A stretch of 64,000 bases of DNA from an uncultured Clostridium sp. (lineage in GTDB: Bacteria; Bacillota; Clostridia; TANB77; CAG-508): assembly GCA_946500265.1 (NCBI GenBank), contig CAMMVE010000005.1:1906-65905 (forward strand), read 5' to 3'. A program made the translations under genes and the position numbers. Numbering within the stretch: the first letter of the stretch is position 1; every line of letters begins with the position of its first letter. A model generated the notes under the pieces. It did no database searches. It saw nothing but the letters and a program-made list of their open reading frames with translations, and had not been told where the DNA came from. Of the stretch, positions 13,496 through 45,279 are shown piece by piece.

Positions 13496-13526
13496 TGTCG
13501 GTTTGGGGACAGGCTTCCAGCCGACA
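13496..13526. repeat. Family B unit (TGTCGGTTTGGGGACAGGCTTCCAGCCGACA), a single copy inside the operon
   Basis: It lies in the 50-bp gap between the gamma and delta subunit genes. Confidence 0.85.
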
Positions 13527-13528
13527 TA

Positions 13529-14110
13529 TTAAAAAATTTCTTTAACTTCATTTAATGCCATTTCAATTGCTTTCATATTTCCTTCTATAACTTCAGGTTT
13601 TTTTGCAAATTTATGCTTAAATGAACCTTTCATATCTTCTATAAAGTCTTTTTTATCCATAATTCCACTAACTTTAACTATAGCTGCAAGCATTGGTGTG
13701 TTTGGAAAATATTTACCAAGTGTTTCCATGGAAACTTTTCTTGCATCAATAGTATATACTTTTCCTTTATAACCCTTTAAAGCTTTAGCTAAATATTCAC
13801 CATCTTTTGTTGTATTAATTACAATTGCGCCAGTTTCTTTTAAACCAGCTGTAACATCTACACTCTCTAATAATGTATCGTCTACAACTACTACATAATC
13901 AGGCTCGTAAATATTACTATGTATTCTTATAGGTGTATCGCTTATTCTGTTATAAGCTGTAATTGGCGCACCCATTCTTTCTGGACCATATTCAGGGAAA
14001 CCTTGAATATATTTTCCAGTATTAAATGCAGCATCTGCTAATAGCAAAGACGCCGTTTTAGCACCTTGTCCACCTCTTCCGTGCCATCTAATTTCTATCA
14101 TGCTACTCAT
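13529..14110 (-). CDS. 2-oxoacid:ferredoxin oxidoreductase, gamma subunit
   Basis: It begins IEIRWHGRGGQGAKTASLLLA. This is the first gene of the gamma-delta-alpha-beta order. Confidence 0.85.
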   Translation of the reverse strand: MSSMIEIRWHGRGGQGAKTASLLLADAAFNTGKYIQGFPEYGPERMGAPITAYNRISDTPIRIHSNIYEPDYVVVVDDTLLESVDVTAGLKETGAIVINTTKDGEYLAKALKGYKGKVYTIDARKVSMETLGKYFPNTPMLAAIVKVSGIMDKKDFIEDMKGSFKHKFAKKPEVIEGNMKAIEMALNEVKEIF

Positions 14111-14384
14111 TCATCAAAACCTCCTTTTCTTTTGATACGTAAAGTATATATCTTAGAAGATAAGATGTCAATATTTTTTAATATGAACTACCTTCATAAA
14201 AAATTTTAAAAACATTTATATTAAAAATATGAAAAATAAAGAAGTATAAATAGAGAAATTTTAGAAAAAATAATACAGATAATTGACAATGCAAAAAAGT
14301 TGAATTATCATATAAAGTGTATAAATATAGAAATGTTTATAGGTATCAAAAAACCTAAATAAATTTATAAAATGGAGAAAAAAT

Positions 14385-15275
14385 ATGTATATTAAATACA
14401 AAAGCGAAAGAGGCTCAATGGCAGTATATGTAACGGTAGTATTATTCACAATGCTAATTATTTTATCATCATTATATATGACAACATCTTCTGTAAGGAA
14501 AAGCCAATTAACAGCAGCTGTTATGATAAAGAAAGCTTATGAATCTGATAACAATAATGCTGAGAAAATATATAATAGCTTAACTGGAGGTGGTTCGAGT
14601 GGCGGACAAGAACAGCCAGAAGAACCAGAAATTGAATATGTAACAGATGGTCTTGAACTTCATTACGATGCAATAAATAATACTGGCACAGGACATAGTA
14701 ATACAACTACAACATGGGTGGATTTGAGCGGAAATGGAAATAATGCAACAGTAACTGGCGGAACATGGTCGGATAACTATTTGAGTTTTACTAGTTCCAA
14801 TAGCTCAAATGGAGTAAAAACAAATAGTGCTTTCCCTATAAACTTTTCTGCAAAAACATTTAATATTGTGTTTAACTTATCACAAGTAAAAGATGTAGAA
14901 GCTTTATTGGGATCAAGAATTAGTACAAATAATGGACTTATGTTATTTAATTATAACAGTACTAATGCCTTAACTCTAGATACAGTTCAAGGTGGTACAA
15001 GGACTAATATAGGCGATAGATTAGTTGCAAATACTAATTATAACTTAACTGTTACTTTTGATAATGGAACATTGAAATTATATAATAATGGAACTTTACT
15101 AAATACAACTACGTATACAAACGGAACATTAAATAATCAATTAACAGTATTTACAGCAGGAGCCAGAAATAATTCTTTAGGAATGGTATACAGTGTCAAA
15201 TGCTACAATAGAGCCTTAACAGCAGAGGAAGTAATGCAAAATTATAATATGGATAAAGAAACATACGGATTTTAA
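14385..15275 (+). CDS. PilX-N-like hydrophobic N-terminus fused to a LamG/concanavalin-type lectin domain
   Basis: The N-terminus ERGSMAVYVTVVLFTMLIILSSL resembles the PilX_N minor-pilin segment. A Gly/Ser linker follows. The C-terminal part (LHYDA..W.DLSGNGNNATV...) resembles Laminin_G_3 domains. Confidence 0.45.
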   Translation: MYIKYKSERGSMAVYVTVVLFTMLIILSSLYMTTSSVRKSQLTAAVMIKKAYESDNNNAEKIYNSLTGGGSSGGQEQPEEPEIEYVTDGLELHYDAINNTGTGHSNTTTTWVDLSGNGNNATVTGGTWSDNYLSFTSSNSSNGVKTNSAFPINFSAKTFNIVFNLSQVKDVEALLGSRISTNNGLMLFNYNSTNALTLDTVQGGTRTNIGDRLVANTNYNLTVTFDNGTLKLYNNGTLLNTTTYTNGTLNNQLTVFTAGARNNSLGMVYSVKCYNRALTAEEVMQNYNMDKETYGF

Positions 15276-16256: not shown

Positions 16257-16274
16257 TACTATTGGAGGTTAAAA

Positions 16275-17974: not shown

Positions 17975-18024
17975 CTCTTAATGGGATTCTAATTCGAGCA
18001 TTAATTGCTCTTACTTAAGGAATA

Positions 18025-18077
18025 GTGAAACTCAGTGAAATATTGGGACACATTTAAATGTGTCTCAAGTGTTTCAC
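18025..18077. repeat. Family A repeat, variant core GGGACACATTTAAATGTGTCTC, with a duplicated GTGAAA arm
   Basis: I read it directly. It lies downstream of rodA. Confidence 0.85.
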
Positions 18078-19125: not shown

Positions 19126-19202
19126 AATAAAATATAAATAGGTTAGAAATAGCCTATTTTTTTATATCTGTTATCTATAAGTTGTACTTTGATTTTATAT
19201 AC

Positions 19203-19245
19203 GTGAAACGTGGTGACAGATTTAAATCTGTCACCTAAGTTTCAC
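19203..19245. repeat. Family A repeat, variant core GGTGACAGATTTAAATCTGTCACC
   Basis: I read it directly. A degenerate second copy follows at 19255-19296. Confidence 0.85.
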
Positions 19246-24002: not shown

Positions 24003-24133
24003 AATTCCTTTATATGAAATTTAAGCAAGCAATAGCTGAGAAAATGGCTGTTGCTTGTTTTTATTTGGCTAAATCTTAAGAAATATGTTGAAAAAAAGCC
24101 AAATTTACTATATAATTTAACAGATTAATAGAA

Positions 24134-24258
24134 TGTCGTTTTGGGGACAGGTCTCCCGCCGACAGCAGTGTTGTTTAGTAAATTACTAATGTTAGGTCTG
24201 TCCCTTCGCTGACAAAATGTCGGCGGGAGACCTGTCCCCAAAACGACAAAGGAGAAGA
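24134..24258. repeat. Family B composite element with perfect 31-bp terminal inverted repeats
   Basis: TGTCGTTTTGGGGACAGGTCTCCCGCCGACA (24134-24164) is the exact reverse complement of 24228-24258. A degenerate inverted unit lies at 24191-24224. The right end abuts the smc RBS AAAGGAG. Confidence 0.9.
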
Positions 24259-24260
24259 GT

Positions 24261-27200
24261 ATGTATTTAAAAAGATTAGAGTTACAAGGGTTTAAATCCT
24301 TTGCAGATAAAACAGTGTTAGAATTTAAGAGTGGTATTACGTCGGTTATTGGACCAAATGGTTCTGGCAAGAGTAATATTTCTGATGCCATTAGATGGGT
24401 GCTTGGCGAGCAGAGTATGAAGTCTTTAAGAGGAGCTAAGTCTGAGGATGTTATTTTTGCTGGTACACAGGCTAGAAAGTCTTTAGGCTTCGCTGAAGTT
24501 TCTATGGTAATTGATAATACTGATGGAAAGCTTCCTATAGAGTATTCTGAAGTTACTGTTACGAGAAAGCTATATAGAAGTGGCGAAACTGGTTATTTTA
24601 TAAATAAAGTACCTTGCAGACTTAAAGATGTTTTAGAGCTTTTTATGGATACAGGTATTGGTAAAGATGGATATAGCATTATTGGTCAAGGTAAGATAGA
24701 TGAGATTTTAAGTAATAAATCTGAAGATAGAAGAAAAATTTTTGAAGAGGCTGCTGGTATTGTGAAGTATAGAACAAGAAAGGCAGAGTCTGAAAAAAAG
24801 TTAGAGCAAACAAAATTAAATTTACTTAGAATTAATGATATTTTAGCTGAAATTGAGGGTAATATTGAGCCTCTTAAAGCTCAGTCTGAAAAGGCAAGAC
24901 AATATTTAGATTTAAGAGAAGAGCTTAAGAATATTGAGGTTGGACTATTCTTACACAATATTTCGGAATATAAAGAAAAACTTGAAAAAGTAGTGGAAGA
25001 TATCCAAATAGTAGAAGACCAGAATTTAGCTGAAAACGAAAAGATGGAAAACTTGCAAAAGGCTAAAGAAGAGTTGAAAGTAGAAATAGATAATATTACA
25101 TTAAAAATTGAAGAAATGCAAAATATTGGATTTGAGAGTACTAATAAAATTGAGAAAATAAATTCAGAAATAGGCATTTCTAAAGAAAGAATACAAAATA
25201 ATAGTGCGAATAAAGAAAGACTAAAAACAGAAATTGAGGATATAAAAAATAGGATTAATGAGCTTGACGAAGAGAAAAATCAAAAATTAAGCAAAAAGGA
25301 AGACTTGTATTCAAATAGAGAAAAATATCAAAAAGAGCTTGAAGAAAAAGAAGCAGAACTTGCAAAACTCACAGAAAAACTTTCTAGTAAAGAGCTTGAA
25401 ATAGAAGCAAAAAAGCAGGAAATAGAAAGAAACACAGATGCTAAGTATGAAATTATTTCTGAAATAAGTAGTTTAGATACAAATTTTGAAAATATAGAGA
25501 AAAGAGAAAAAACTGCGAAAGCTGAAATAGAAAGTTTAACATCTGAAATAGATGGAGCTAGAAATGAAAAGCAGGAAAAGGGAAAGCATTTTTATGAAAT
25601 AGAGTATAAGAAAAATGAACTAACAAAAAGTTTACAGGACAAAAAGAGCAAAAAAGATGAAAGTATGACCAAAATTAAAGAGTTTGAAACTACTTTGAAT
25701 AATTTAAATTATGAAAGTAGAATGAAAGATTCTAGGCTTAAATTTTTAATCGAAACTGAGAAAGAAAAAGAAGGATATACTAGAAGTGTTAAATCTCTTT
25801 TAAATGACTGCGAAAAAGATACTAACCTAAAAAAGGGAATGAATGGAGTTTTAGCAAACCTTATTTCTGTAGATAAAAAATATGAGACAGCAATAGAAAT
25901 GTGCTTAGGTCAAACACTACAAAATATTGTTACAGATACAGAAGAAGATGCAAAAAAGTTAGTTGAACATTTGAGAAACAATAAATTAGGAAGAGCATCA
26001 TTTTTGCCAGTATCATCTATCAGAGGGAAAAAACTAGATAGAATTATAAAAAATAGTACAGAAGGAGTTATTGGAGTTGCCTCTGATTTAGTAAAATGCG
26101 ATAAAAAGTATGAACAAATAGTACTTAATCTACTTGGTAGAACATTAATAGTAGAAAATATGGATACAGCAATTCAAATGGCAAAACTAAATTCATATTC
26201 ATTTAGAATAGTTACATTGGAAGGCGATATTATTAGTAACACTGGTGCTATTACTGGTGGATCTATTCAAACTAAAACAGTAAATATTCTAGGAAGAAGT
26301 AGAGAGATAGAAGACTTAGAAAAAGCATTAAAAGAAATAAACGAAAAAATAGAAAAAACTACAAAAGCAAAAGATGAATATACAGATTCAGCTTCTGATG
26401 TTATAGAAGAAGTAACAAGGCTTGAAAAAGAATTACAAGACATAGAAATAGAGTATGCAGCAGAAAATCAGAAAATAATTAGCATGGACGAAAATATAGA
26501 AAAATTAGAACTAAGAAGAGAAAAAATAAAGAAAGAAATAGAAGACTTAGGAAAACAAAAAATAGATAATAGAACAGAAAAAGAAGAGAAAGAAGAAAGA
26601 ATTAATTATTTAACTTCTGAAACACAGAAACTAAGTGAAATAGTAGAAGAATTTGCAGCAAATAATAAAGAAAATCAAAAATATATTGATGATTTAAACT
26701 TTGATATAACAAATTTAAAAATATCTGTATCTTCATTTGATGAAAGTGGAAGCTCGATAGATGAATTGATAGAAAGAATAAACCAAGATATAGAAAACAG
26801 TAAAATATCTATAGAAAATAAAGAAAAGAATATACAAGATGTTTTAACAGAAAATGAAAACCTAGAACAAAAAATTAAAGAGTTAGAGGAAGAAATTCAG
26901 AAGATAAAATCAGAAGTAGAAAATAGTTCTACATTAATAGAAAACTTAAAAAATGATAGACTTGAAAAAAGCGAAAAACTAAAAAATGCAGAAAAAGAAA
27001 TAAATGACGAGTTTTCAGTAATTGAAGATATAAAAGGTCAAATTGTAAAATTAGATGTGCGCAAAACCAAGCTAGAGCAGGACTTGGAGCAAGTTGTAAA
27101 TAACCTATGGATAGAATACGAGCTAACACCAAACAATGCAGGTGAGTATCAAAAGCCACAAAATGTTCAAAAAGCAGCAAGAGACGTAAATACGATAAGA

Positions 27201-27868: not shown

Positions 27869-27912
27869 GTGAAACAGTGGGGACAGATTTCAAATCTGTC
27901 CCCGAGTTTCAC
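27869..27912. repeat. Family A repeat (GGGGACAGATTTCAAATCTGTCCCC core)
   Basis: I read it directly. It lies downstream of smc. Confidence 0.9.
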
Positions 27913-30816: not shown

Positions 30817-31004
30817 AAAGCCGAATACTATATATTTCTCAAATTTTCTCGTGACTTGTTGTCGAAACCATCTAAGCATTCTGAAAAGAAAATAAATTTT
30901 CTTTTCATCTGCTAGGTTTCTCCAAGCGCACTCGCCTTTTACAAGGCTCGTTTGGTGGCTACGCGTCACTTCGAAAATTCTCTAAATATATAGTATTCGG
31001 CTTT
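30817..31004. ncRNA. 188-nt imperfect long hairpin, candidate 6S-like RNA (a MITE is the alternative)
   Basis: The ends pair with 21 perfect bp (AAAGCCGAATACTATATATTT / AAATATATAGTATTCGGCTTT), then 7 and 5 further bp separated by internal loops. There is an asymmetric central bubble and an apical stem GAAACC...GAAAAGAAAA taaa TTTTCTTTTC...GGTTTC. The size and AAAGCC...GGCUUUU ends resemble B. subtilis 6S-1 as I recall it. Confidence 0.35.
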
Positions 31005-32256: not shown

Positions 32257-32277
32257 ATAAAAAGCATTACTAGAATA

Positions 32278-32321
32278 GTGAAACACTGGGGACAGATTTA
32301 AAATCTGTCCCCAAGTTTCAT
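32278..32321. repeat. Family A repeat (GGGGACAG variant)
   Basis: I read it directly. It is the first of a tandem pair. Confidence 0.9.
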
Positions 32322-32335
32322 AGGAAAAATCATAA

Positions 32336-32378
32336 GTGAAACATGGTGACAGATTTAAATCTGTCACCTAAGTTTCAC
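32336..32378. repeat. Family A repeat (GGTGACAG variant)
   Basis: I read it directly. It is the second of a tandem pair. Confidence 0.9.
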
Positions 32379-33895: not shown

Positions 33896-33926
33896 GAAAA
33901 AGAATTGATAATTTATTAGAAAAGCA

Positions 33927-34299: not shown

Positions 34300-34442
34300 T
34301 GTGAAATCTGGCATCTGAGCGACATAAAAAGTTAACAAGCAAACCATGAAAGAATACTGGAACTAGAATAATAGCGGTAAAATAAAAATAAGTAACTTAA
34401 CTACAAAATAAAAATTCAATAAAAGCAATTTGATAAAAAGTA

Positions 34443-34471
34443 TTGATAGAAATAGTATTATCTGATAAAAT
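34443..34471 (+). promoter_or_regulatory. Sigma-A-type promoter (TTGATA-17-TAAAAT) of the stand-alone Rpn-C gene, copy 1
   Basis: It is conserved in copy 2 (36501-36529). Confidence 0.5.
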
Positions 34472-34516
34472 AAGGAGGAAAAGTGGCTACTAACGGGGGA
34501 GGATGAGAAGATAAAG

Positions 34517-34837
34517 ATGGCAAGTGAAGAGAATAAAACAATAGGAAAAGTGGTAGAAGATTTAGACGAAATGAGTGCTGATGAAAATGAGAGGTTAGAG
34601 GCATATAAAAGAAAGCTTGCAATAATAGATTACAATACATCAATAGACATGGCTCATAAAGAAGGAAAGCAAGAAGGAAGGAAAGAGGGCGAGAAAATTG
34701 GCAGAGAAGCTGGCGAAAAAGCTGGAAGAAAGGCAGAACAATTAAAAATAGCTAAAAGATTAAAAGAAAAGGGGATAGAACTTGCCGAAATTATGGATAT
34801 AACAGAATTAACAAAAGAAGAAATAGAAAAGATTTAA
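34517..34837 (+). CDS. Stand-alone homologue of the C-terminal domain of Rpn (YhgA-like) nuclease, copy 1
   Basis: MASEENKTIGKVVEDLDEMSADENERLEAYKRKLAI... aligns with residues about 213-303 of the full-length Rpn protein encoded at 50070..50963 (KMASEKNKSIEKVVEDLDEMSADENERLEAYKRKLAI). Confidence 0.55.
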   Translation: MASEENKTIGKVVEDLDEMSADENERLEAYKRKLAIIDYNTSIDMAHKEGKQEGRKEGEKIGREAGEKAGRKAEQLKIAKRLKEKGIELAEIMDITELTKEEIEKI

Positions 34838-34916
34838 AAGAATGTAATTGTATTGATATAAGTTATTAAAAATATGAAGGAACACAAAAGAAATGAAAAA
34901 AGAGGAAAACAATGAA

Positions 34917-35169: not shown

Positions 35170-36255
35170 TTATAAACCTACAGAATTTGCTCCATATTCA
35201 GCTTGAGCAGTAGTAAACCCTTCAAATTCTAGTTGACTGATTAATTTACTTCTTGAGAAAGACATAGTATCTAAATATTGTTTAGCTTTTTTAGCAGCTT
35301 GCTGATTCCAATTAGCGCCACAGTTATCGGCACCATATTTAGCTTCAGTACTTGTAAAACCTTCGAATTCTAGCTGGTTTTTTAAACCCTCATATGAGAA
35401 AGCAGAATGCTGTAAATATTGTTTAGCTTTTTCTAATGCTTGTGCTTTCCAGTTAGCTCCACAATTATCAACACCATATTTAGCTTCAGTACTTGTAAAA
35501 CCTTCGAATTCTAGCTGGCCTATTAAGTCTTCATAAGAGAAAGCAGAATGTTGTAAATATTGTTTGGCTTTTTTTAATGCTTGTGCTTTCCAGTTAGCAC
35601 CACAATTATCAACTCCATATTTAGCTTCAGTACTTGTAAAACCTTCGAATTCTAGCTGGTCTTTTAAACCTTCATAAGAAAAAGCAGAATGTTTAAGATA
35701 ACTTTTGGCAGTAGTTAAAGCATTTTGTTTACCAACAGATACATTATTAGTGCTATTGTTAGAACTATTAGTTTTATTGCTATTGTTACTATTGCTAGAA
35801 CTATTAGTTTTGTTGCTATTGTTGCTATTGCTAGAGCTATTAGTTTTATTGCTATTGTTGCTACTGCTAGAGCTATTAGTTTTGTTGCTATTGTTGCTAC
35901 TGCTAGAGCTATTAGTTTTATTGTTATTGTTATTATTGCTAGAGCTATTAGCTTTATTACTATTACTTGAATTATTATTTTTGTTAGAATTGTTAACTTT
36001 ATTGCTATTACTTGATGTTGAATCATTATTCTTAGATGATGTGTTGTTATCTGTTTCTATGCTATTTGATATATTCTCTGGCAAGTTAATATTATTATTA
36101 TCAGAGCCTTTAAAAAAGTCAACTTTATATAAAAAGAATACAACTAAAACAATTATAATAAGTGAAATTATAACAAAAATCCACCATTCCTTATCAAAAC
36201 CTTCTCTTTGTTCTTCCAATTTTACATTCCCCCTTTTCATAAAAGTATAATACAA
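35170..36255 (-). CDS. Membrane-anchored protein with four Ltp-type repeats (host cell surface-exposed lipoprotein Ltp family) and an Asn/Ser-rich tandem-repeat linker
   Basis: The unit A..A..YL....FS...L..QLEFEGFT..EA.YG.DNCGANW..QA occurs four times and matches the Ltp domain of streptococcal phage TP-J34 as I recall it. There is an N-terminal TM helix. The start is uncertain (possibly TTG with an AGGGGG RBS). Confidence 0.6.
   Translation of the reverse strand: MYYTFMKRGNVKLEEQREGFDKEWWIFVIISLIIIVLVVFFLYKVDFFKGSDNNNINLPENISNSIETDNNTSSKNNDSTSSNSNKVNNSNKNNNSSNSNKANSSSNNNNNNKTNSSSSSNNSNKTNSSSSSNNSNKTNSSSNSNNSNKTNSSSNSNNSNKTNSSNNSTNNVSVGKQNALTTAKSYLKHSAFSYEGLKDQLEFEGFTSTEAKYGVDNCGANWKAQALKKAKQYLQHSAFSYEDLIGQLEFEGFTSTEAKYGVDNCGANWKAQALEKAKQYLQHSAFSYEGLKNQLEFEGFTSTEAKYGADNCGANWNQQAAKKAKQYLDTMSFSRSKLISQLEFEGFTTAQAEYGANSVGL
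35750..35960. repeat. Tandem 36-bp coding repeat (about 5-6 units, SNKTNSSS(S/N)SNN)
   Basis: The unit gctattgttgctactgctagagctattagttttgtt repeats inside the Ltp-like gene. Confidence 0.85.
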
Positions 36256-36500
36256 AGATTTACAAAATTCAACATATATATTAATAAAAAAATATGAGTA
36301 ACATTTTTACATGTCCAACTGTCATAAGATATTGCATTTTAAAAATTAATGAAAAAAATACCGTCAAATGGTAAGCTAAATCCAAACGTAACGAATTGAC
36401 AATAAAATAACGAAATAGATGCAAAAAACTAAAAGAAAGAGATAATGTAAAATAATCCATGAAAAAATAAAAATTAATAAAAACAAATTGATAAAAAGTA

Positions 36501-36529
36501 TTGATAGAAATAACATTATCTGATAAAAT
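36501..36529 (+). promoter_or_regulatory. Sigma-A-type promoter (TTGATA-17-TAAAAT) of the stand-alone Rpn-C gene, copy 2
   Basis: This is the same sequence as copy 1. Confidence 0.5.
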
Positions 36530-36584
36530 GAGGAGGAAAAACAATGGTTATGGCTACTAACGGGGGGAGGATGAGAAGATAAAG

Positions 36585-36881
36585 ATGGCAAATGAAGAGA
36601 ATAAAACAATAGAAAAAGTAGTAGAAGAATTAGACGAAATGAGTGCAGATGAAAATGAGAGGTTAGAGGCATATAAAAGAAAGCTTGCGATAATAGACTA
36701 CAACACATCAATAGACATGGCTCATAAAGAAGGAGAGAAAATTGGCAGACAGGAAGGCGAAAAAGCTGGAAGAAAGGCAGAACAATTAAAAATAGCCAAG
36801 AATCTAAAAGAGCAAGGAATAGAAATAGATATAATAGTAAAGACTACAGGACTAACTAAACAAGAGGTGGAATCGATATAA
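36585..36881 (+). CDS. Stand-alone homologue of the C-terminal domain of Rpn nuclease, copy 2
   Basis: It begins MANEENKTIEKVVEELDEMSADENERLEAYKRKLAI and ends ...IAKNLKEQGIEIDIIVKTTGLTKQEVESI, very close to the C-terminus of the full-length Rpn. It is preceded by a decayed QWLWLL.. remnant of the parent gene. Confidence 0.55.
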   Translation: MANEENKTIEKVVEELDEMSADENERLEAYKRKLAIIDYNTSIDMAHKEGEKIGRQEGEKAGRKAEQLKIAKNLKEQGIEIDIIVKTTGLTKQEVESI

Positions 36882-36999
36882 AAAATGAGAAAAACATTTT
36901 TTTAACTTTACTTTAAAAAATAAAAGCTTGAAAAGGCTTTTATTTTTTTGTTAAAAGGTGTATAATATTATCATGTTAACAAGAAAGGAAATTTAAATA

Positions 37000-37735: not shown

Positions 37736-38776
37736 ATGAAAAAAGAATACATTATACCGATTTTTGTTCCACATCTGGGTTGCCCAAATAATTGCACATT
37801 TTGCAACCAAAAAAGAATAAGTGGACAAACTAAAATGGTTACAGCACAAGATGTTAAAGATACTATTGATTTTTTCCTAAAGCATTTTAGAGATGATTAT
37901 AAATATGTAGAAGTTGCTTTCTTCGGTGGGAGTTTTACTGCAATAGATGAGAAAACTCAAGTAGAACTTTTAGAGGCTGTTCAAGAGTATATTCAAAATA
38001 AAAAAGTTAATAGCATTAGGATTTCTACGAGACCTGACTGTATTGACAAAGAAATTTTGAAAAGAATGAAAAAGTATCATGTAAAAACAATTGAGCTTGG
38101 AGTTCAGTCTACCAATAATTATATTTTAAAAAGATGCAAAAGGGGTCATACATATGAAGATACAAAAAAAGCTTCTAAGCTAATTAGAAGATATGGCTTT
38201 ATACTAGGGCATCAAATGATGGTAGGACTTCCAGAAAGTACAAAACAAGATGAAATTAACACAGCTAAGGAACTTATAAGGCTTAAACCTAAAATTGTAA
38301 GAATCTATCCAGTATTAGTTATAAAAGATACTGAGCTTGCAGATGAATACGAAAGAGGAGATTATACTCCATTAACAGTAGGACAAGCAGTAGAAAGATG
38401 CAAAGATATAGTAGATTTATTTAATCGAAATAAAATAAATGTAATAAGAGTTGGATTACAAAACACAGAAGAAATTACGGATCCAGGAACTGAAAAGAGT
38501 AGTGTTATAGCAGGTCCATATCATCCTGCATTTAGACAATTAGTTGAATCTAGTATGTGGTATGATAGTATTGTAAACAAGATAAAAAAGGTTAATGCTA
38601 AAGTAAAAAAAGTAAAAATTATTGCGAACGATGTTAATGTAAATAATATAATTGGACATAAAAAAGAAAACATTGAAAAGTTAAAAGATGTATATGACGT
38701 CGAAGTAGTAATAGAAAAAAGTGAAGAGATAAAACCTGGTAAATTTAAAATAGAAATAGTGGAATCATATGAATAG
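37736..38776 (+). CDS. Radical SAM protein (ELP3-like Fe-S oxidoreductase commonly found next to rnc in clostridia)
   Basis: It has the CPNNCTFC (CxxxCxxC) motif near the N-terminus, then FFGGSFT. Confidence 0.7.
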   Translation: MKKEYIIPIFVPHLGCPNNCTFCNQKRISGQTKMVTAQDVKDTIDFFLKHFRDDYKYVEVAFFGGSFTAIDEKTQVELLEAVQEYIQNKKVNSIRISTRPDCIDKEILKRMKKYHVKTIELGVQSTNNYILKRCKRGHTYEDTKKASKLIRRYGFILGHQMMVGLPESTKQDEINTAKELIRLKPKIVRIYPVLVIKDTELADEYERGDYTPLTVGQAVERCKDIVDLFNRNKINVIRVGLQNTEEITDPGTEKSSVIAGPYHPAFRQLVESSMWYDSIVNKIKKVNAKVKKVKIIANDVNVNNIIGHKKENIEKLKDVYDVEVVIEKSEEIKPGKFKIEIVESYE

Positions 38777-38819
38777 TGAAACAATGGGGATAGATTTGAA
38801 TCTGTCCCCATTGTTTCAC
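38776..38819. repeat. Family A repeat (GGGGATAGATTTGAATCTGTCCCC core), overlapping the stop codon of the radical SAM gene
   Basis: I read it directly. Confidence 0.9.
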
Positions 38820-40015: not shown

Positions 40016-40885
40016 ATGCAAGAGCAAAAGTATATATTAGAAAATGTAAAATCATTTGAACCAAAGCATATATTTGAATGCGGACAATGTTTTAGATGGG
40101 ATGAAGAGCCTGATGGAAGTTATACTGGAATAGTAAAAGATAATGTAATAAATGTGAAAAAAGTGGATAACACAGTATATTTTACAAGCCTAGGTGCAGA
40201 TAATTTAAAAAACTTAGTAGACGATTATTTTGATTTGGGAAGAGATTATGAAAAAATAAAAGAAACTCTTTCGGAAATCGATGAATATTTGGAAAATAGT
40301 ATAAGATATGGAAACGGAATAAGAATATTAAATCAAGATTTATGGGAAACTATTATATCTTTCATAATTTCAGCAAATAATAATATACCTAGAATAAAGG
40401 GGATTATAAATAGAATTTCTCAAAAATACGGAAATAAAATAGAGTGGAATGGAAAAGAATATTACACCTTCCCAACAGTAGAAAATTTAGCAAAGGCAAC
40501 AGTAGAAGACTTGAGAAATTTAGGTCTGGGATTTAGAGATGTGAGAGTATATGAAACAACTCACAAAATTTTGAATAAAGAAGTAGACTTGGAAAAACTT
40601 CATCAAGAACCAGATACACAGAAAGTAAGAGACACACTTTTAACATTATCTGGAGTAGGACCTAAAGTTGCAGACTGTATATTATTATTCTCAACATTAA
40701 AAAGATTTGATGTGTTTCCAATAGATGTGTGGGTTAGACGTGTGATGAATGAGTTATACATAAAAAATGAAGACGAGACAAAAGTAAATAAAAGGGAAAT
40801 TGAAAAACTTGCAAAAGAAAAATATGGGGATTTAGAAGGACTAGCACAGCAATACTTATTCTATTGGAAAAGAGATACTGCATAA
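40016..40885 (+). CDS. ogg: 8-oxoguanine DNA glycosylase / HhH-GPD family (clostridial Ogg type)
   Basis: It has an N-terminal FECGQCFRW motif, an HhH region LSGVGPKVADCILLF and the catalytic D in FPIDVW. Confidence 0.7.
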   Translation: MQEQKYILENVKSFEPKHIFECGQCFRWDEEPDGSYTGIVKDNVINVKKVDNTVYFTSLGADNLKNLVDDYFDLGRDYEKIKETLSEIDEYLENSIRYGNGIRILNQDLWETIISFIISANNNIPRIKGIINRISQKYGNKIEWNGKEYYTFPTVENLAKATVEDLRNLGLGFRDVRVYETTHKILNKEVDLEKLHQEPDTQKVRDTLLTLSGVGPKVADCILLFSTLKRFDVFPIDVWVRRVMNELYIKNEDETKVNKREIEKLAKEKYGDLEGLAQQYLFYWKRDTA

Positions 40886-41044
40886 TGTCGGTTTGGGGAC
40901 AGGTCCGGAGGCGACAAAATGTCGCCTCTGGGACAGGTCTCCAGGCGACTTGAAAATATAGTATGGCAATATATAAAATAGAGTAAACCTATGTGCTAGT
41001 GAAGCTATATGGCGCACTGTCGCCGTGAGACCTGTCCCAAAAGT
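40886..41044. repeat. Family B composite element: two forward units, an AT-rich core with an outward promoter, and one inverted unit
   Basis: The units lie at 40886-40916, 40920-40949 and, inverted, 41018-41044. It starts directly after the ogg stop codon and ends at the RBS of the DUF2207 gene. The core is about 85% identical to the core of the 45081-45279 copy by eye. Confidence 0.85.
40950..40979 (+). promoter_or_regulatory. Candidate promoter inside the family B element (TTGAAA-16/18-TATAAA/TAAAAT)
   Basis: TTGAAA lies at 40950-40955 and TAAAAT at 40974-40979. It reads toward the DUF2207 gene. Confidence 0.45.
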
Positions 41045-41060
41045 AGAAAAGGAGTAACAT

Positions 41061-43217
41061 ATGAAAATTATTAAAAAGTTTTTTTATACATTATTATTTG
41101 TAATAGTTTTTTTGATTTTAATGCAAATTAGCACGCAAGCAAGAAGCTATAGCATAGAAGAAATGAACATTCAAGCAACTGTGCTTGATAATGGCGATGT
41201 TAATATAAAACAGAGCATTACATATGATTTCAATGACGTTTATAATGGAATTTATATAAACATCCCTTATGTTATTGAAGATAAAGAATATGATGATGTT
41301 ATAGAGAACAGTAAAATTAGAGATAGTTTATATACCGGTTCTGGAATTACTATTAATTCTATTACTGATAGCCAAGATATAAAATATGAACAGGCTAGCT
41401 ATGCTTCTAATGGTACGTCTGGTAAATATACAGTTAGTAAAGAAGCTGGAATTGAAAATATAAAAGTTTATTCTCCATCTACAAATATAACTAAGACTTT
41501 TATTTTAGATTATGATATTACTAATCTATGTGTTAAACATAATGATATAGGAGAACTTTATTATAATTGTATTGGTGGAGAATGGGATGTTGATATTAAT
41601 AATTTAAATATTGATGTTTATTTACCAAACAATAAAGAAGAAATATATATTTGGGGACATGGACCTTTGAATGGCGTTTCGAAAATCATTGGCAATACCC
41701 ATGCTAATTTTAGTGTTGATAAAGTACGCAAAGGTCAATATGTAGCAGCAAGAGTCTTATTTGATAAAAGTAATATAGAAAATTCTAATAAATTGTCAAG
41801 AATAGATGCTAGGGATATGATTTTTTCAGATGAGAAAGTAATTGCAAAAAATCAAGACGAGAAAAATAAATTTACGCAACGAATGATTTTATTTGCGATA
41901 GTACTTGTTATATATTGGATAATTTTATTATTAACTTTTGAAAAAGAGAAAAAAGTAGAAGTATATGAATTGAATGAAGAAGAACTTTTCAAAAAATATA
42001 ATCCAATGCTTGCAGGGTGTATTCAAGGTAATAGAGAAATTTTAGCAAGAGATATAATTGCCATAATTTTAAATTTAATAGATAAAAAATGTATTAACCT
42101 AGAAATAACTTCATTCACAGATAATAAAGGTGAACAATATGATTGCAGGATAAGCCCAAATAATGAAAACGAAGAGAATATGGATGAAATAGAAAGATTT
42201 GTTTATGATTGGGTTTTTGCTAATCAATCAGATAGAGTTGAGCTAGGAAGAAGGTTAGAAACTCTTGCAAAAGACCAAAACGCAAATACAAAATTTAAGC
42301 ATTTAGATAAGTTAGTAAAAAGTAAATTGAATGAAATAGGAGCAAATCAGCCAAAAGTTCCTAAGATTTTGAGAATATTAAATGTTGGTCTTTTAATTGC
42401 AGTAATTGTATTTGTTGTAAAACATATTATGTTTAACGGATTTGATGCAAACTTGCCTGGACTAGCTATTTTGCAAATGATAGCAGTAAGTAGTCTAAGA
42501 TTATGGCCATTAGTAATATTGTTGGGCTTTATACCAATAAGTTTAATAGTTACAATTCGACACAGAGTAAACAATATATTACAAAAGATAACAGGACAAA
42601 AATCAGTAATTACTGCAATAAGTATAATACTTATATTTGCTGTAATAATTATTTTAACAGCAGCATTTTCACCAGTAAAGTATATAATTGTTGATGAAAT
42701 ACTAATTTGTATAGCATTAGTTATAGTTCTGACAGATAACTTGATGTTACAAAATAACGACGAAATTTTAGCGGATTATAAGAAATTAAATTTGCTAAAG
42801 GATAAAATAGAAAACTATACTTTATTAGATGAAAAGGATATTGAGCATATAGAGCTATGGGATAAATATTTATGTTATGCTGTAAGCTTTGGAATTGGCG
42901 AAAAAATAATCAAAAGATTAAAAGGTTTATACATAGATGATGATTTAATGAAACTTGCAGAAAGCAATAAATTTCTAGATTTTGTTGCGTCAGATTATTA
43001 CTGGTTTTATACGTATGCAAGTTTAGATAGAAGATTTGTAAGAAGTTATAGGTCTTTCATTTCCAAATTGGGATCTGGTTCAGGTGGCAGCAGTGGAGGT
43101 TCGTCTTTTGGCGGAGGCGGAGGCTTCTCAGGTGGAGGCGGATTCTCTGGTGGTGGAGGACGCCGGCGGAGGTGGAGGTGCTTTTTAATAGACCTACCCC
43201 CAAAGTATAAAAGATAA
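41061..43217 (+). CDS. DUF2207-family membrane protein with a Gly-rich C-terminus; the C-terminal end is possibly +1 shifted at 43164
   Basis: It has a signal/TM segment, a large extracellular domain, several TM helices and a C-terminal SGGSSFGGGGGFSGGGGFSGGGG. The zero frame ends RRRRWRCFLIDLPPKYKR. The +1 frame ends GGGGGAF-stop at 43186-43188, which is the typical family ending. Confidence 0.65.
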   Translation: MKIIKKFFYTLLFVIVFLILMQISTQARSYSIEEMNIQATVLDNGDVNIKQSITYDFNDVYNGIYINIPYVIEDKEYDDVIENSKIRDSLYTGSGITINSITDSQDIKYEQASYASNGTSGKYTVSKEAGIENIKVYSPSTNITKTFILDYDITNLCVKHNDIGELYYNCIGGEWDVDINNLNIDVYLPNNKEEIYIWGHGPLNGVSKIIGNTHANFSVDKVRKGQYVAARVLFDKSNIENSNKLSRIDARDMIFSDEKVIAKNQDEKNKFTQRMILFAIVLVIYWIILLLTFEKEKKVEVYELNEEELFKKYNPMLAGCIQGNREILARDIIAIILNLIDKKCINLEITSFTDNKGEQYDCRISPNNENEENMDEIERFVYDWVFANQSDRVELGRRLETLAKDQNANTKFKHLDKLVKSKLNEIGANQPKVPKILRILNVGLLIAVIVFVVKHIMFNGFDANLPGLAILQMIAVSSLRLWPLVILLGFIPISLIVTIRHRVNNILQKITGQKSVITAISIILIFAVIIILTAAFSPVKYIIVDEILICIALVIVLTDNLMLQNNDEILADYKKLNLLKDKIENYTLLDEKDIEHIELWDKYLCYAVSFGIGEKIIKRLKGLYIDDDLMKLAESNKFLDFVASDYYWFYTYASLDRRFVRSYRSFISKLGSGSGGSSGGSSFGGGGGFSGGGGFSGGGGRRRRWRCFLIDLPPKYKR

Positions 43218-43228
43218 AGAGGAATAAG

Positions 43229-45079
43229 ATGGAAGCAGAAAAAAAGAAATTAAAAGGCGTAAAAGAAGCAATTATTACAGGAATTATTCCGATAATTTTA
43301 AATATTTTGCTAACATATGGATTTTGCAACACATTATTTTTATATACATTACATATTCCAACTTTGTATTTATCATTTACAATGATGTATTTAATTTATG
43401 TGTTAATTACTGTACTTGTAAAGAAAACACACATAGCGACATACATAATTTCTTTGGTTATATTTGTACTTTCAATAGTGAATAATGTAAAATTCTATTA
43501 CACTGCATCGCCAATTTATCCATCAGATTTATTCTTTTTAGGTAATATTGGAGGAATAACTGGAATTGTAAAAAATGATTTCTTATCACATATAGATTAT
43601 GTGCAAATGGGAATTCTATTAGCATTGCTTATCGGAGCATGCATTTTATCTAAATTAAATAGCATTACAATTAGCAATATAAAAGTTAGGGTAATTACAG
43701 GAGTAAGCGTAATAGTGGTATTATTCATAATGTTTGTGCCAATTAACGCAAAAGATCAATTTATTTTAAATAGTATATATAATGTTGATGAAAGAAAAGA
43801 TTATGAAGCTATTACTACAGATATACAATATTATGCTACATATGGTGTGCTTGGAGGCATTTATGGATTAGAGCTAGAAAATAGAAAAATTGAGCCTAGT
43901 AATTATAATGAAGAACAGGTTATAAGCACACTAGAACAAGCGAATGCTTCTGCAGTAGAAGAAAAAGATTTGCAAAAACCCAATATTATAGTGATGTTTC
44001 AGGAATCATATTGGGACATAGAAAAAATAGATGAAATAGAATTTGATAAGGATATTACAGAAAATTTCAGGAAGTTAAAAGAAACAGAAAACGGAGTAAA
44101 TTTATTGTCAGCATCATATGGTGGAATGTCTAGCAATATTGAGTTTGAATTATTAACGGGTGGAAATTTAGCGTATTTTCCAACAGGCTACCATCCATTT
44201 GCTCAATTATATAGAAAAAACGATTCAGAGGCAAAGCCTTCAATTATAAAAGAACTTAAAAATAATGGATATTCATCTAAAGTGGTCTTCGGAAGGGACT
44301 ATTACCTATCTGAAAATATCTATAAAAAATTAGGAATAGATGAATATATAAATGCTTATTCAGATATGCCTGACTATGAACAAAAAATCAAGGGAACGTA
44401 TATATCTGACGAGGCATTAGTTGATGAGGTAATCGAAGCATTAAAAAACAAAAGTCCAGATGAGAAGATTTTTTATATGACTGCTACTATACAAACACAT
44501 ATGCCATTTGACAAAGATGTATATGATGGATATGATATAAATGTAGAAAGTACTAAATTATCGGAAGAAGATACAGGAATAATTTTATCATATGCACAAG
44601 GAGTATATGATACCAATGTTCAAATACAAAGACTATATGAAGAAATACAAAAAATAGAAGAACCAACAATAATTGTAGTATTAGGAGACCATTTACCATA
44701 TTTGTATAATATCGATGGAGAGGATGTATTGGCAAAACTATCATATTTTAACACTAGCGATGAAAAAGTGGATTTATTAAGAAAATATTCAACAGAGGCA
44801 CTAGTATTATCGAACTATGGCACAAAAATAGATTTTGGCAGTGAGTATATAAGCCCAGATATGTTACTTACAAATATAATAAACCAAATGGATATAGAGA
44901 TATCACCATACTATAAATGGCTATATAACATAAGAAATATTTTGCCAGCACAAAATCAATACATAACATTAGATACAAGCGGAAACATTTATTATGCCAA
45001 TGAAGAAATGACGGACACAATGCAAAAAACTAAAATGTTACGTGAAAATATACAATACTATTTGTTCGAATCAAATTAA
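43229..45079 (+). CDS. LTA synthase / sulfatase-family membrane protein (LtaS-like)
   Basis: It has five N-terminal TM helices and an extracellular sulfatase-like domain (PNIIVMFQESYW..., GDHLPY). Confidence 0.7.
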   Translation: MEAEKKKLKGVKEAIITGIIPIILNILLTYGFCNTLFLYTLHIPTLYLSFTMMYLIYVLITVLVKKTHIATYIISLVIFVLSIVNNVKFYYTASPIYPSDLFFLGNIGGITGIVKNDFLSHIDYVQMGILLALLIGACILSKLNSITISNIKVRVITGVSVIVVLFIMFVPINAKDQFILNSIYNVDERKDYEAITTDIQYYATYGVLGGIYGLELENRKIEPSNYNEEQVISTLEQANASAVEEKDLQKPNIIVMFQESYWDIEKIDEIEFDKDITENFRKLKETENGVNLLSASYGGMSSNIEFELLTGGNLAYFPTGYHPFAQLYRKNDSEAKPSIIKELKNNGYSSKVVFGRDYYLSENIYKKLGIDEYINAYSDMPDYEQKIKGTYISDEALVDEVIEALKNKSPDEKIFYMTATIQTHMPFDKDVYDGYDINVESTKLSEEDTGIILSYAQGVYDTNVQIQRLYEEIQKIEEPTIIVVLGDHLPYLYNIDGEDVLAKLSYFNTSDEKVDLLRKYSTEALVLSNYGTKIDFGSEYISPDMLLTNIINQMDIEISPYYKWLYNIRNILPAQNQYITLDTSGNIYYANEEMTDTMQKTKMLRENIQYYLFESN

Positions 45080-45080
45080 T

Positions 45081-45279
45081 TGTCGTTTTAGGGACAGGTC
45101 TCCGGGCGACAAGCTGTCGCTCAGGGGACAGGCCTGCAAGCGACAATCTGGCATTCAGAGAGACAGGCCTGCAAGCGACATGAAAAATATAATATGCCAA
45201 TATATAAAATGGAGCAAATCTAGGTGCTAGTGAAGCTATATGGCTAACTGTCGCCGTGAGACCTGTCCCTAAAACGACA
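45081..45279. repeat. Family B composite element: three forward units, an AT-rich core with an outward promoter, and one inverted unit
   Basis: The units lie at 45081-45111, 45115-45145, 45149-45180 and, inverted, 45249-45279. It starts 2 nt after the ltaS-like stop and ends at the addB RBS GAAGGAG. Confidence 0.9.
45180..45210 (+). promoter_or_regulatory. Candidate promoter inside the family B element (ATGAAA-19-TAAAAT)
   Basis: It occupies the position homologous to the promoter in the 40886 copy, but its -35 box is weaker. Confidence 0.35.

Follow-up and report, generated by a model that had tools for sequence, protein, structure and literature searches.

GC-rich intergenic repeats of an uncultured gut Clostridium, probably spread by a RAYT/TIRYT-type transposase

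Family B, a set of short GC-rich repeats detected in a 64-kb stretch of DNA (hereafter, the window), is lineage-specific, and its host is an uncultured low-GC gut Clostridium. Judging from the sequences of the repeats and of an associated enzyme, these are most likely intergenic repeats of the REP/BIME-like (TIRtron-type) kind, whose spread and maintenance probably depend on a Y1/HUH transposase, of RAYT/TIRYT type and acting in trans, that is encoded by a single-copy, vertically inherited gene. Elements of this kind have been described before; what is new is the host, and the position of the units relative to stop codons and ribosome-binding sites (RBS) is unusually exact. A preceding sequence-only reading had proposed a MITE-like non-autonomous transposable element. 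Family B is most probably a dispersed, lineage-specific, non-autonomous mobile family, in agreement with that proposal, but not a classical MITE, given the lack of target-site duplications and of a common interior.

The repeat unit and its four loci

The unit of about 31 nt (TGTCG-N5-GGGACAGGTCTC-N4-CGACA) is asymmetric, with an A/T-rich N5 on one side of GGGACAGGTCTC and a GC-rich N4 on the other. All 11 units described in the sequence-only reading were recovered in place at four intergenic loci, roughly one B locus per 16 kb of the window, and the contrast in composition was borne out, with about 61% G+C in the unit compared to 27-34% for the window of this 30% GC genome. The string GGGACAGGYCT, with at most one mismatch, occurs 12 times in the window against 0.23 expected, a number that none of 100 shuffles reached; the occurrence at 12108, within a coding region, is due to chance. 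The repeated module, the 31-nt unit at a 34-nt period, varies in number: units occur alone, in head-to-tail arrays, or in inverted arrays (F...R) around a locus-specific core. As had been noticed previously, GGGGACAG is common to family B and another repeat family, A.

Locus 1 is a solo unit, TGTCGGTTTGGGGACAGGCTTCCAGCCGACA (13496-13526, plus strand), between two genes on the minus strand. On that strand, its A/T-rich (N5) end is flush with the Shine-Dalgarno (SD) sequence of the 4Fe-4S delta-subunit gene (13182-13478), and the opposite end lies 2 nt past the stop codon of the POR gamma-subunit gene (13529-14110). Locus 2 consists of an outer forward (F) unit (24134-24164, plus), a partial degenerate reverse (R) unit, AGGTCTGTCCCTTCGCTGACA (24194-24214, minus), and an outer R unit (24218-24248, minus) that is 100% complementary to the F unit over 31 nt, with its CGACA end flush with the SD (AAGGAG) of a gene for an 1184-aa SMC protein (24261-27815). 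This locus is located 131 nt past the preceding stop codon, shortly 3' of a terminator-like hairpin and an 11/12 promoter-like match (24088-24116), and the F unit follows the -10 hexamer of that promoter-like site at a distance of about 17 nt.

Locus 3 opens directly after the TAA stop of the OGG gene (40016-40885) with a tandem pair of F units (40886-40916 and 40920-40950, plus), and their junction forms the hairpin GGAGGCGACA-aaa-TGTCGCCTCT. They are followed by an AT-rich core (40951-41017) with a weak promoter-like match, TTGAAA-18-TAAAAT, and by an R unit with a degenerate outer arm (41018-41048, minus), directly next to the SD of a DUF2207 gene (41061-43217). Locus 4 begins 1 nt past the TAA stop of a sulfatase-family gene (43229-45079) with three tandem F units on the plus strand (45081-45111, 45115-45145 and a degenerate one at 45149-45180). 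Its AT-rich core (45181-45248) is homologous to that of locus 3, with 90% identity, and absent elsewhere; the outer R unit (45249-45279, minus), 94% complementary to the first F unit over 31 nt, is flush with the SD (GAAGGAG) of addB (45294-48638). Thus, the inverted terminal arms that had been proposed are present at loci 2 and 4. The claim that the elements sit exactly between a stop codon and the next RBS stands for loci 1, 3 and 4 but fails for the upstream side of locus 2, which abuts only the smc RBS.

Could these composites be classical MITEs, that is, internally deleted derivatives of a DDE-type IS, whose transposase acts on 24-31-bp terminal inverted repeats and leaves target-site duplications? 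Their outward-facing inverted ends of 31 nt, the dispersed and lineage-specific distribution, and a gene of the PD-(D/E)XK 'transposase' family at 50070-50981 would suit such an origin. However, direct repeats flank none of the composites, so that the duplications that the sequence-only reading had proposed to look for are lacking; the composite interiors are unrelated, with the exception of loci 3 and 4, and spacer lengths vary between 2 and 132 nt; solo units or one-orientation arrays make up most of the loci; no units are located near the PD-(D/E)XK gene; and the one transposase located between units belongs to the Y1/HUH class, not to the DDE class. A classical DDE-type MITE is therefore largely refuted and very improbable. 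The combination of missing duplications, unshared interiors, variable 31-nt modules and a Y1/HUH enzyme points to the REP/BIME- or TIRtron-like category. Correia/nemis elements of Neisseria and BOX/RUP of Streptococcus pneumoniae are likewise small intergenic repeats, whose transcripts, shared with neighbouring genes, fold into long stems; RNase III cleaves the Correia RNA, and BOX is built of modules, with internal units that vary in number. These families are either DDE-type MITEs with target duplications (TA) or lack a known transposase, whereas family B shows no duplication and is associated with a Y1 transposase.

A Y1/HUH transposase flanked by family B units

The transposase gene is absent from the 64-kb window. 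In metagenomic contig L112, a gene for a 267-aa protein (3438-4241) lies between F-F (3123-3187) and R'-R (4265-4329) arrays, a layout exactly like that of the window composites, and L161 shows the same arrangement of B units around this gene. The sequence-only reading had suggested looking for a transposase-encoding copy, and a transposase gene flanked by B units is present outside the window. GGGGACAG is present in the units flanking the gene and throughout the family. The source metagenomes of L112 and L161 also hold contigs 99.8% identical to the window; from this co-occurrence and the shared repeat type, rather than from one closed genome, we infer that the transposase belongs with the window genome. 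The gene is single copy across all the DNA sampled.

The L112 protein matches Pfam Y1_Tnp (PF01797; E 6.6e-12, 46 bits, cut-off 23). Its best NCBIfam match is the REP-associated tyrosine transposase (NF047646), which aligns over profile positions 4-145 of 146 with a score of 55.6, below the equivalog cut-off of 80. H62 and H64 of the HUH motif (NHVH) and the tyrosine of RYIHxNP are invariant in 14 homologues, and V63 nearly so. The AF2 model (pLDDT 85.5) includes a helical C-terminal domain, and its top PDB match is 4ER8_A, the complex of E. coli RAYT with a REP hairpin (E 1.4e-6, target-normalised TM 0.69), which ranks above the TnpA proteins of IS608, ISDra2 and IS200 in the structure search. 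The C-terminal HTH (residues 236-265) weakly matches Pfam HTH_23 (E 0.0023) and HTH_SB, and the homologues have precomputed PF13384 or PF02796 matches. With its catalytic domain and C-terminal HTH, the enzyme appears to belong to TnpA-REP subclass 2.1, a placement made by motif and HTH. Most of the RAYT homologues are located on contigs of 1-2 kb.

TnpA-REP subclass 2.1 is characterized by a C-terminal HTH together with the motif GGGG[AT][CG]A[CG] (Quentin et al. 2018, PMC6006769) and has been equated with TIRYT/TIRtron (PMC3733652, PMC6006769), in which the flanking inverted repeats share GGGGWSAS (Di Nocera et al. 2013, PMC3733652). The named repeat families of this branch come mainly from Stenotrophomonas and Acidobacteria (PMC3733652, PMC6006769), and Quentin et al. 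did not find a family of REP-like repeats beside subclass 2.1 genes (PMC6006769); RAYT group 1 occurs in Clostridia too (PMC5581495). Family B resembles these systems in the single-copy, RAYT-like Y1/HUH transposase, about 260 aa long and extended by a C-terminal HTH, in the GGGG[AT][CG]A[CG] motif of the flanking inverted repeats (here, GGGGACAG), and in the presence of repeats elsewhere in the genome as singles, dimers and clusters. It differs in its host, an uncultured low-GC gut Clostridium; in the amplification of the 31-nt unit into head-to-tail arrays at a density of about one locus per 16 kb of the window; and in the strict polarity of the units relative to gene ends.

REP/BIME/REPIN elements of E. 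coli and Pseudomonas (Nunvar 2010, PMC2817692; Bertels & Rainey 2011, PMC3116915) share with family B the form of 20-40-nt, GC-rich, extragenic, species-specific imperfect palindromes; the occurrence of single copies, clusters and inverted doublets, the last of which form long hairpins; and the association with a single-copy, vertically inherited, fast-evolving transposase flanked by its own repeats, with no target duplication. However, the GTAG tetranucleotide that tags canonical REPs is absent from the unit consensus, in which the conserved parts are TGTCG/CGACA and GGGACAGGTCTC; unlike BIMEs, which alternate in orientation, B units are mostly direct tandem; and unlike a canonical RAYT, the enzyme has an additional HTH domain and falls short of the equivalog cut-off of the NCBIfam RAYT model. 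IS200/IS605 elements and their palindrome-associated miniature derivatives need subterminal hairpins of single-stranded DNA and leave no target duplication. By the PDB matches to its model, the family B enzyme has the same catalytic fold, but the repeats are far shorter than IS ends. Moreover, five related species carry just one copy of the gene, always in the same chromosomal slot, which indicates that, unlike IS200/IS605, the transposase gene itself is not multiplying.

Dispersal, turnover and co-variation with the enzyme

The family extends well beyond the window, in line with the sequence-only reading. A strict 22-base pattern matched 49 metagenome contigs, and a fuzzy model detected 139 units, redundant copies included, which resolved into 47 further non-redundant loci in 49 related contigs. 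All these loci are intergenic or overlap just the last codons at the 3' end of a gene, and the majority are solo units or one-orientation arrays. Three of the contigs (L103, L128 and L136) are 98.5-99.8% identical to the window.

The empty sites expected of a mobile family were found as well: relatives at 88-94% protein identity lack units at orthologous sites, with no apparent replacement. The locus 1 unit is shared with a strain at 96% PORgamma identity (L158/159), is absent from the PORgamma-delta junction of a 94% relative (L156/157), and at the same junction of L160, a different subfamily of repeat is present. Unit number also varies between strains, L004 being without exactly one 34-nt unit of the locus 3 F array, although unit counts and copy-number differences carry some risk because metagenome assembly may collapse or chimerise repeats (L118 looks chimeric). 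Arrays adjacent to RadA and DisA are conserved in position across species; some copies, at least, have therefore long been in place and are stable, not recent arrivals.

A 90-nt segment of core plus R sequence is common to loci 3 and 4 (90% identity), which bracket the DUF2207 and sulfatase gene pair, an arrangement that would be expected if the units were attC- or dif-like sites for site-specific recombination of gene cassettes, with this pair as one cassette. The OGG-AddB junction is free of units in L155 and L151-154, and in L155, where AddB follows OGG after 29 nt, the two-gene block is missing altogether. But L151 retains DUF2207 remnants at the corresponding place without any unit, which implies that these genes were present before the repeats; no integrase is encoded nearby, the flanked genes are mostly housekeeping ones (SMC, AddB, POR, RadA), and no conserved crossover core exists beyond the RAYT-type motif. 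We accordingly give recombination at cassette sites hardly any credence. In the metagenome contigs, several genes lie between F and R arrays, which would likewise suit cassette sites. Genes for GNAT, RNase H, MBL-fold protein, TraX and spore photoproduct lyase occupy the interior position that the transposase has, and it is a possibility that F...R pairs carry passenger genes, as they do the transposase.

Homologues of 45-52% identity occupy a GH15-RAYT-RadA slot in four other species (L162-L169), with DisA directly after RadA in L162-L167. Each of the five species, that of the window included, has its own variant of the flanking repeat built on a GGGGAC core: TTCG...GGGACAGGTCTC...CGAA in L164, GGGGACAGGCCTT in L162, GGGGACGTTCC / GTGACA in L166, and GGGACCACATCTA terminal inverted repeats in L168. 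Between species, the transposase is 51% identical, compared to 87% for RadA and 82% for GH15. From these comparisons, the transposase appears to be a single-copy, vertically inherited gene that co-evolves with its own flanking repeats. The outer F and outer R units carry the same N5 variant in 11 of the 15 composites (permutation p = 0.007), matching variants that suggest that the two ends of a composite are made together.

Placement at gene boundaries and folding

The A/T-rich end of the unit always faces outward. Outer ends adjoin a stop codon or SD in 53 of 64 cases, compared to 2 of 36 inner ends (Fisher p = 8e-15), and 16 outer ends abut the stop codon at exactly 0 nt. We know of no RAYT mechanism that predicts such a nucleotide-exact fit. 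As RNA, the composites fold with z = -6.7 to -10.3 into stems of 22-31 bp, with the base joining stop codon and SD; the strongest, at locus 2 (24120-24275), is a 31-bp stem with z = -10.3.

These features, together with the conserved position of the arrays preceding RadA and DisA, would also suit a cis-acting RNA element of the host, for instance an RNase III site, a 3'/5' stabiliser of mRNA or a translational coupling device, which selection keeps at gene boundaries and which is only incidentally associated with the transposase. Also on this side, the palindromes of family A, likewise located after genes at 0-150 nt from stop codons, are not flush with them. Yet the orthologous junctions of close relatives do without units, unit number varies within the species, the fold of a solo unit as RNA is insignificant (z = -1.8), and Rfam 15 yields no match at gathering thresholds anywhere in the window, with only sub-threshold, generic long-hairpin (miRNA precursor) matches at the B loci. 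Furthermore, the same units flank the transposase gene and co-vary with its sequence between species. As the primary explanation, an RNA element is quite unlikely; it is compatible, as a secondary role, with repeats spread by a RAYT/TIRYT-type enzyme.

Under the latter, preferred explanation, the transposase would recognise hairpins of single-stranded DNA: the F-R doublet folds strongly (z = -15), tandem doublets reach z = -4.3 to -5.8 (in three of the six strands folded), and single units form weak hairpins at best (z about 0 to -2.7). By analogy with IS200/IS605 TnpA and the E. coli RAYT, it may cut and join beside the conserved GGGGACAG, which would leave no target duplication. The window composites would then be miniature versions of the transposase-bearing element, and the solo arrays its half-sites. 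Co-transcribed composites would fold into the 22-31-bp RNA stems, placing the upstream stop codon beside the downstream SD, and these stems are plausible RNase III or mRNA-stability sites. We regard any such RNA role as a secondary consequence or exaptation, not as the reason for the existence of the family. A more specific version, to which we assign a small but appreciable probability, is that the exact placement does not stem by accident from selection acting on random insertions, but that the RAYT/TIRYT system sets or trims the repeats to gene boundaries and that the closing stem, by juxtaposing stop codon and SD, punctuates operons; such punctuation could provide RNase III processing sites, differential mRNA stability, or termination-reinitiation coupling kept across a 100-200-nt insert.

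To our knowledge, REP/RAYT-type systems have been studied almost only in Proteobacteria, and published surveys list few or no amplified repeat families for the HTH-bearing TIRYT/subclass 2.1 branch. That branch is now tied to an abundant repeat family, with boundaries defined at the nucleotide level, in a clade of uncultured gut Clostridia. For genomics of this organism, the 31-nt repeats matter in that they break short-read assemblies and can extend or replace the 3' ends of genes, which bears on annotation. The five species with co-evolved repeats form a natural series for the study of DNA recognition, with a conserved GGGGAC core set against variable arms, as well as of the turnover of repeat populations and of whether the flush stop-codon/SD geometry reflects mechanism or selection.

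Family B units and their contact with gene boundaries

The family B unit, a GC-rich stem-loop of about 31 nt, reads TGTCG-N5-GGGACAGGTCTC-N4-CGACA on the plus strand in its forward orientation (F) and is the reverse complement of this sequence on the same strand in the other (R). The unit is asymmetric: the variable inner segment N5 is A/T-rich (GTTTG, TTTTA, CTTTA), and the segment N4 is GC-rich (CCGC, CAGG). The four loci of the window and their contents were recovered as the sequence-only reading had described them, with 11 units in total. Locus 1 is a single unit (13496-13526). Locus 2 has one F (24134-24164) followed by two R units, the first of them partial (24194-24214 and 24218-24248). 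In locus 3, an AT-rich core of 67 nt separates two F units (40886-40950) from an R whose outer arm has decayed (41018-41048), and in locus 4, a core separates three F units, the last of them degenerate (45081-45180), from one R (45249-45279). The outer arms of loci 2 and 4 are complementary over 31 nt (100% and 94%, respectively). Allowing one mismatch, the string GGGACAGGYCT is found 12 times in the window against 0.23 expected, a count that shuffled sequences came nowhere near; one of the 12, at 12108, is a chance match within a gene. That the units are more GC-rich than the genome (~61% G+C vs 27-34% in the window) and share a core, GGGGACAG, with the family A palindromes was likewise confirmed. 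Rfam returned nothing in the window, including no family match for the B loci. A CRISPR array was considered for the tandem units and rejected, given the 3-nt linkers and absence of spacers. Readings of the arms as Spo0A boxes (TGTCGAA) or parS-like sites were considered as resemblances only.

Across the non-redundant loci, all 15 intergenic regions that contain units in both orientations have the order F...R, with the N5 ends facing outward, and units of the same orientation are arrayed head to tail every 34 nt, joined by 3-nt linkers that are usually AAA. With gene boundaries taken from our own crude ORF caller (flush junctions are directly readable in the sequence), an outward N5 end lies at a gene boundary in 53 of 64 cases, vs 2 of 36 for the inner N4 ends (Fisher p = 8e-15). 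The boundary is a stop codon in 28 cases, 0-5 nt away from the unit or within it: in 16 of these, TAA, TAG or TGA is exactly flush with TGTCG, and in four, the gene enters the unit and ends at a TAG made of N5 plus G. In the other 25 cases, the boundary is a Shine-Dalgarno (SD) sequence, with CGACA followed directly by AAGGAGG and the start codon 6-22 nt away. TAG is not significantly enriched among the unit-abutting stops (14 TAA, 9 TAG and 1 TGA, a tally that leaves out the four in-unit TAGs, vs a background of 60% TAA and 29% TAG).

In several contigs outside the window (denoted by L-numbers), the 3' end of a gene is extended or replaced by unit sequence. In L164 (9750-9800), the GH15 reading frame continues across an entire unit, giving 654 aa vs 645 aa in L112 and L162; genes in L106, L112 (3100-3135) and L130, like POR gamma in L160 (10578-10590), terminate at an in-unit TAG.

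The outer F and outer R carry an identical N5 variant in 11 of the 15 composites (permutation p = 0.007), which suggests that the two ends were made or homogenised together. The composite interiors are locus-specific, and comparison among them revealed no conserved interior of the MITE type; the 90-nt core-plus-R segment of loci 3 and 4 occurs nowhere else. The locus 3 core gave no convincing alignment with the ancestral intergenic region of L151. Promoter matches within the cores were no commoner than in shuffled sequences, the sole notable promoter-like match (11/12) lying upstream of locus 2.

RNA folding of the coding strand yields long-range F:R stems in all three composites (locus 2, 31-bp stem, z = -10.3; locus 4, 22 + 7 bp stem, z = -8.4; locus 3, z = -6.7); the fold of the solo unit is not significant (z = -1.8). 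As single-stranded DNA, single units fold weakly (z = -0.1 to -2.7), and an F-R doublet from L142 folds very stably (z = -15). Among six strands of tandem F-F doublets, three form one long junction-centred hairpin (z = -4.3 to -5.8), because the core itself is near-palindromic (GGGAC-AG-GTCTC); the remaining three give z = -1.4 to -2.0. The junction stem extends past the invariant CGACA/TGTCG, via complementary N4 and N5, in only about half of 35 distinct tandem pairs, pairing in the other half being confined to the invariant 5 bp, so that an extended junction hairpin was rejected as a defining feature.

Distribution and turnover among relatives

The mobility claimed from the window implied copies elsewhere, and these were found. 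A strict 22-base pattern retrieved 49 metagenome contigs (325 kb in total, 30% G+C), and a fuzzy model counted 139 units, redundant copies included, at 47 non-redundant loci in metagenome contigs. Because L103, L128 and L136 are 98.5-99.8% identical to the window, this set amounts to a partial census of one gut organism, either that of the window or a very close one. In reference genomes, scanned with a loose pattern of 16 specified bases whose match list is dominated by chance matches in GC-rich genomes, the only true low-GC matches among those listed were L040 (an uncultured bacterium bin) and L080 (Candidatus Fimicola cottocaccae), each of which matches further contigs from the same samples at 99% identity. 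The window contains one B locus per 16 kb, and any genome-wide copy number is an extrapolation. The B-bearing organism is known from metagenomes alone, and its repeat arrays may be distorted by assembly.

Orthologous regions were retrieved via homologues of OGG and of the POR gamma subunit. In L155 (OGG 90% identical), AddB lies 29 nt after OGG with no B unit, and in L151-154 (OGG 88%), the OGG-AddB interval contains DUF2207 remnants and no B unit. L155 and L151-154 lack both B and A units throughout ~20 kb of synteny, in which the window carries two B loci and several A copies. At the POR gamma-delta junction, a strain with 96% POR gamma identity has the same solo unit as the window, the 94% relative (L156/157) has a unit-free 94-nt spacer, and the 91% relative (L160) has an F-R doublet of another subfamily with the same core and other arms (GTGGAA-TTTA-GGGACAGGTCT-TAAA-TTCCAC), the stop codon lying within the first unit. 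The spacer in the window comprises 19 nt plus the unit, vs 94 nt in L156. The empty sites at OGG-AddB (L155, L151-154) and POR (L156/157) agree with the mobility proposed from the sequence. At locus 3, one contig of the same species is shorter by exactly one 34-nt unit, possibly through an assembly error.

The DUF2207 and sulfatase-family (PF00884) genes of the window (41061-45079) are missing from L155, and only remnants of them are left in L151-154. Two composites that share a 90-nt segment at 90% identity bracket this pair in the window, and recombination between the composites would delete it. In L118 (3859-3957), a three-unit array links flanks that belong to two different B loci, left in one case and right in the other (L111:11621-11685 and L116:1629-1788); either the assembly is chimeric at the repeat, or recombination between units has truly rearranged the DNA.

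A Y1 transposase flanked by family B units

Among ORFs with an F array on one side and an R array on the other, a Pfam scan identified a 267-aa protein (L112:3438-4241) with the IS200-like Y1_Tnp domain (E 6.6e-12; 46 bits, cut-off 23) and a weak C-terminal HTH. The gene starts 250 nt after F-F (3123-3187) and ends 23 nt before R'-R (4265-4329), and a 99%-identical transposase with the same flanks is encoded in L161, from another sample. Its best NCBIfam match, over nearly the whole profile, is the REP-associated tyrosine transposase (RAYT), at 55.6 bits, below the equivalog cut-off of 80. Among 14 homologues, H62 and H64 of NHVH (the HUH motif) and RYIHxNP are invariant, and V63 is nearly so. 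The AlphaFold model is confident (pLDDT 85.5), and its best PDB match in a fold search was 4ER8, the E. coli REP-associated tyrosine transposase on a REP hairpin (E 1.4e-6, target-normalised TM 0.69), followed by the IS608, ISDra2 and IS200 transposases. A PDB search by sequence alone missed 4ER8, and tblastn with IS608 TnpA and E. coli RAYT queries gave no match, because the actual enzyme is too divergent and was found only by the Pfam scan of unit-bracketed ORFs. The gene is absent from the window, single-copy in all DNA sampled, and tied to the window's genome solely via the identical repeat type and shared samples. A unit-flanked transposase gene, as the sequence-only reading called for, exists in L112 and L161, outside the window; it is of the Y1 rather than the DDE type.

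Most other ORFs between F and R arrays (L102, L105, L111, L119, L132, L133, L139) are ordinary, encoding GNAT, RNase H, an MBL-fold protein, TraX and spore photoproduct lyase; proteins without assignment also occupy this position (141 aa in L133, 106 aa in L139). Possibly, these are accessory genes carried or captured by repeat pairs.

The next homologues of the transposase are only 45-54% identical, and those on long contigs all lie between the GH15 gene and radA, with disA after radA in L162-L167. Each has a repeat variant of its own on either side, of F type upstream and of R type downstream: TTCG-TTTTG-GGGACAGGTCTC-CCAG-CGAA with a 35-nt period in L164/165, TTTTG-GGGACAGGCCTT with a CGGTAAT/ATTACCG junction hairpin in L162/163, CACTTT-GGGGACGTTCC-TTTTTGTGACAA in L166/167, and simple inverted repeats TGGGACCACATCTA in L168/169. 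The R arrays adjoin the SD of radA and disA in L164, L166 and L112, and the array before radA stops 6 nt short of the SD in L162; the upstream array overlaps the final codons of the GH15 gene. Identity between species is ~51% for the transposase, vs 87% for RadA and 82% for GH15. REP/RAYT systems are defined by this picture: a Y1 transposase that is single-copy, inherited vertically and fast-evolving, with inverted copies of a species-specific dispersed repeat on its flanks (PMC2817692; PMC5581495).

Class assignment and proposed mechanism

Di Nocera et al. described RAYT-like genes with long flanking inverted repeats ('TIRYT', 'TIRtrons'), which share GGGGWSAS and in some species are amplified as singles, dimers and clusters (PMC3733652). 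Quentin et al. classified TIRYT as TnpA-REP subclass 2.1, marked by a C-terminal HTH and flanking GGGG[AT][CG]A[CG], and found no REP-like family beside subclass 2.1 genes (PMC6006769); according to Bertels et al., RAYT group 1 occurs in Clostridia too, with only modestly repeated 16-mers (PMC5581495). In family B, GGGGACAG fits GGGG[AT][CG]A[CG] exactly, and the 267-aa transposase carries the HTH extension, so that architecture and motif point to membership in subclass 2.1. The canonical REP tag GTAG is absent from the B unit, and family B is therefore not a GTAG-type REP. A literature search by motif string gave no relevant match. The sequence-only reading was essentially right in calling the repeats mobile and non-autonomous, but not in their class: the target-site duplications expected of MITEs are absent from the composites, and a conserved interior is lacking. 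Family B belongs to the REP/TIRtron class with a RAYT/TIRYT transposase.

Family A consists of perfect palindromes of ~45 nt, GTGAAAC-N3-GGGGACAGATTTAAATCTGTCCCC-N3-GTTTCAC, with variants GGTGACAG, GTGGACAG and GGGACAC. About ten copies are present in the window, 0-150 nt after stop codons (10622-10664, 18031-18077, 19199-19245, 27869-27911, 32275-32321, 32332-32378, 38773-38819, 55805-55851, 57407-57453 and 60231-60268), and 20 more in related metagenome contigs; the family is present in the 96% strain and missing from the sister-species syntenic region. GGGG[AT][CG]A[CG] is matched by the canonical GGGGACAG copies but not by the variants. The B core looks like the A stem minus the apical 11 nt, and the same transposase may serve family A as a second class of repeats.

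A third hairpin family, in part with a GTCCC-type core, occurs in the window (10679-10739, 61511-61571; AAAGTTTAAAAACTTGAACAAAAGG...CCTTTTGTTCAAG) and in the sister species (L151 ~7765, L160 ~13456; TGGACAAA-AAGACGTGTCCCC-TTTGTCCA). A 168-nt non-coding stretch after a cation-ATPase gene (30830-30997) is 93% identical to L040:220-386, in a contig that otherwise does not overlap the window, and may be another repeated or conserved non-coding element. The window also encodes a 303-aa 'transposase' of the PD-(D/E)XK nuclease family (50070-50981, minus strand; Pfam PDDEXK_2, E 5e-46), rejected as the mobiliser because no B units are nearby. Two fragments of ~150 nt (34484-34635 and 36564-36704), 80% related to this gene, lie inside a duplicated segment (34405-34839 vs 36463-36883) surrounding an Ltp-repeat lipoprotein gene (35170-36255).

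For repeats of this anatomy, dispersed, turning over between relatives, and associated with a transposase both physically and evolutionarily, a mechanism can be proposed by analogy with the IS200/IS605 and E. coli RAYT paradigm. The enzyme would act on single-stranded DNA, recognising hairpins, and doublets more than single units, and would cut and join next to the conserved GGGGACAG, which would stay constant as the arms drift. Such cutting and joining would account for the lack of target duplications, and the outward N5 polarity would follow if composites reproduce the ends of the transposase-bearing element, which itself terminates in N5 on both sides. Correia elements show RNase III processing or stability effects; similar effects are plausible here, because co-transcribed composites would have to form RNA duplexes of 22-31 bp.

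The flush contact with stop codons and SD sequences is not explained by any known mechanism. Junctions might be targeted, or selection might favour an arrangement in which the stop codon and the SD are held side by side by the closing stem. The in-unit stops, the shortened POR gamma-delta spacer and the overlap with the 3' end of GH15 suggest another option, that adjacent deletions mediated by the transposase remove neutral DNA until selection halts them. Overall, the family is of moderate interest, for its host clade, for the clean co-evolving series of transposases and repeats, and for the unexplained precision with which its units meet gene boundaries.
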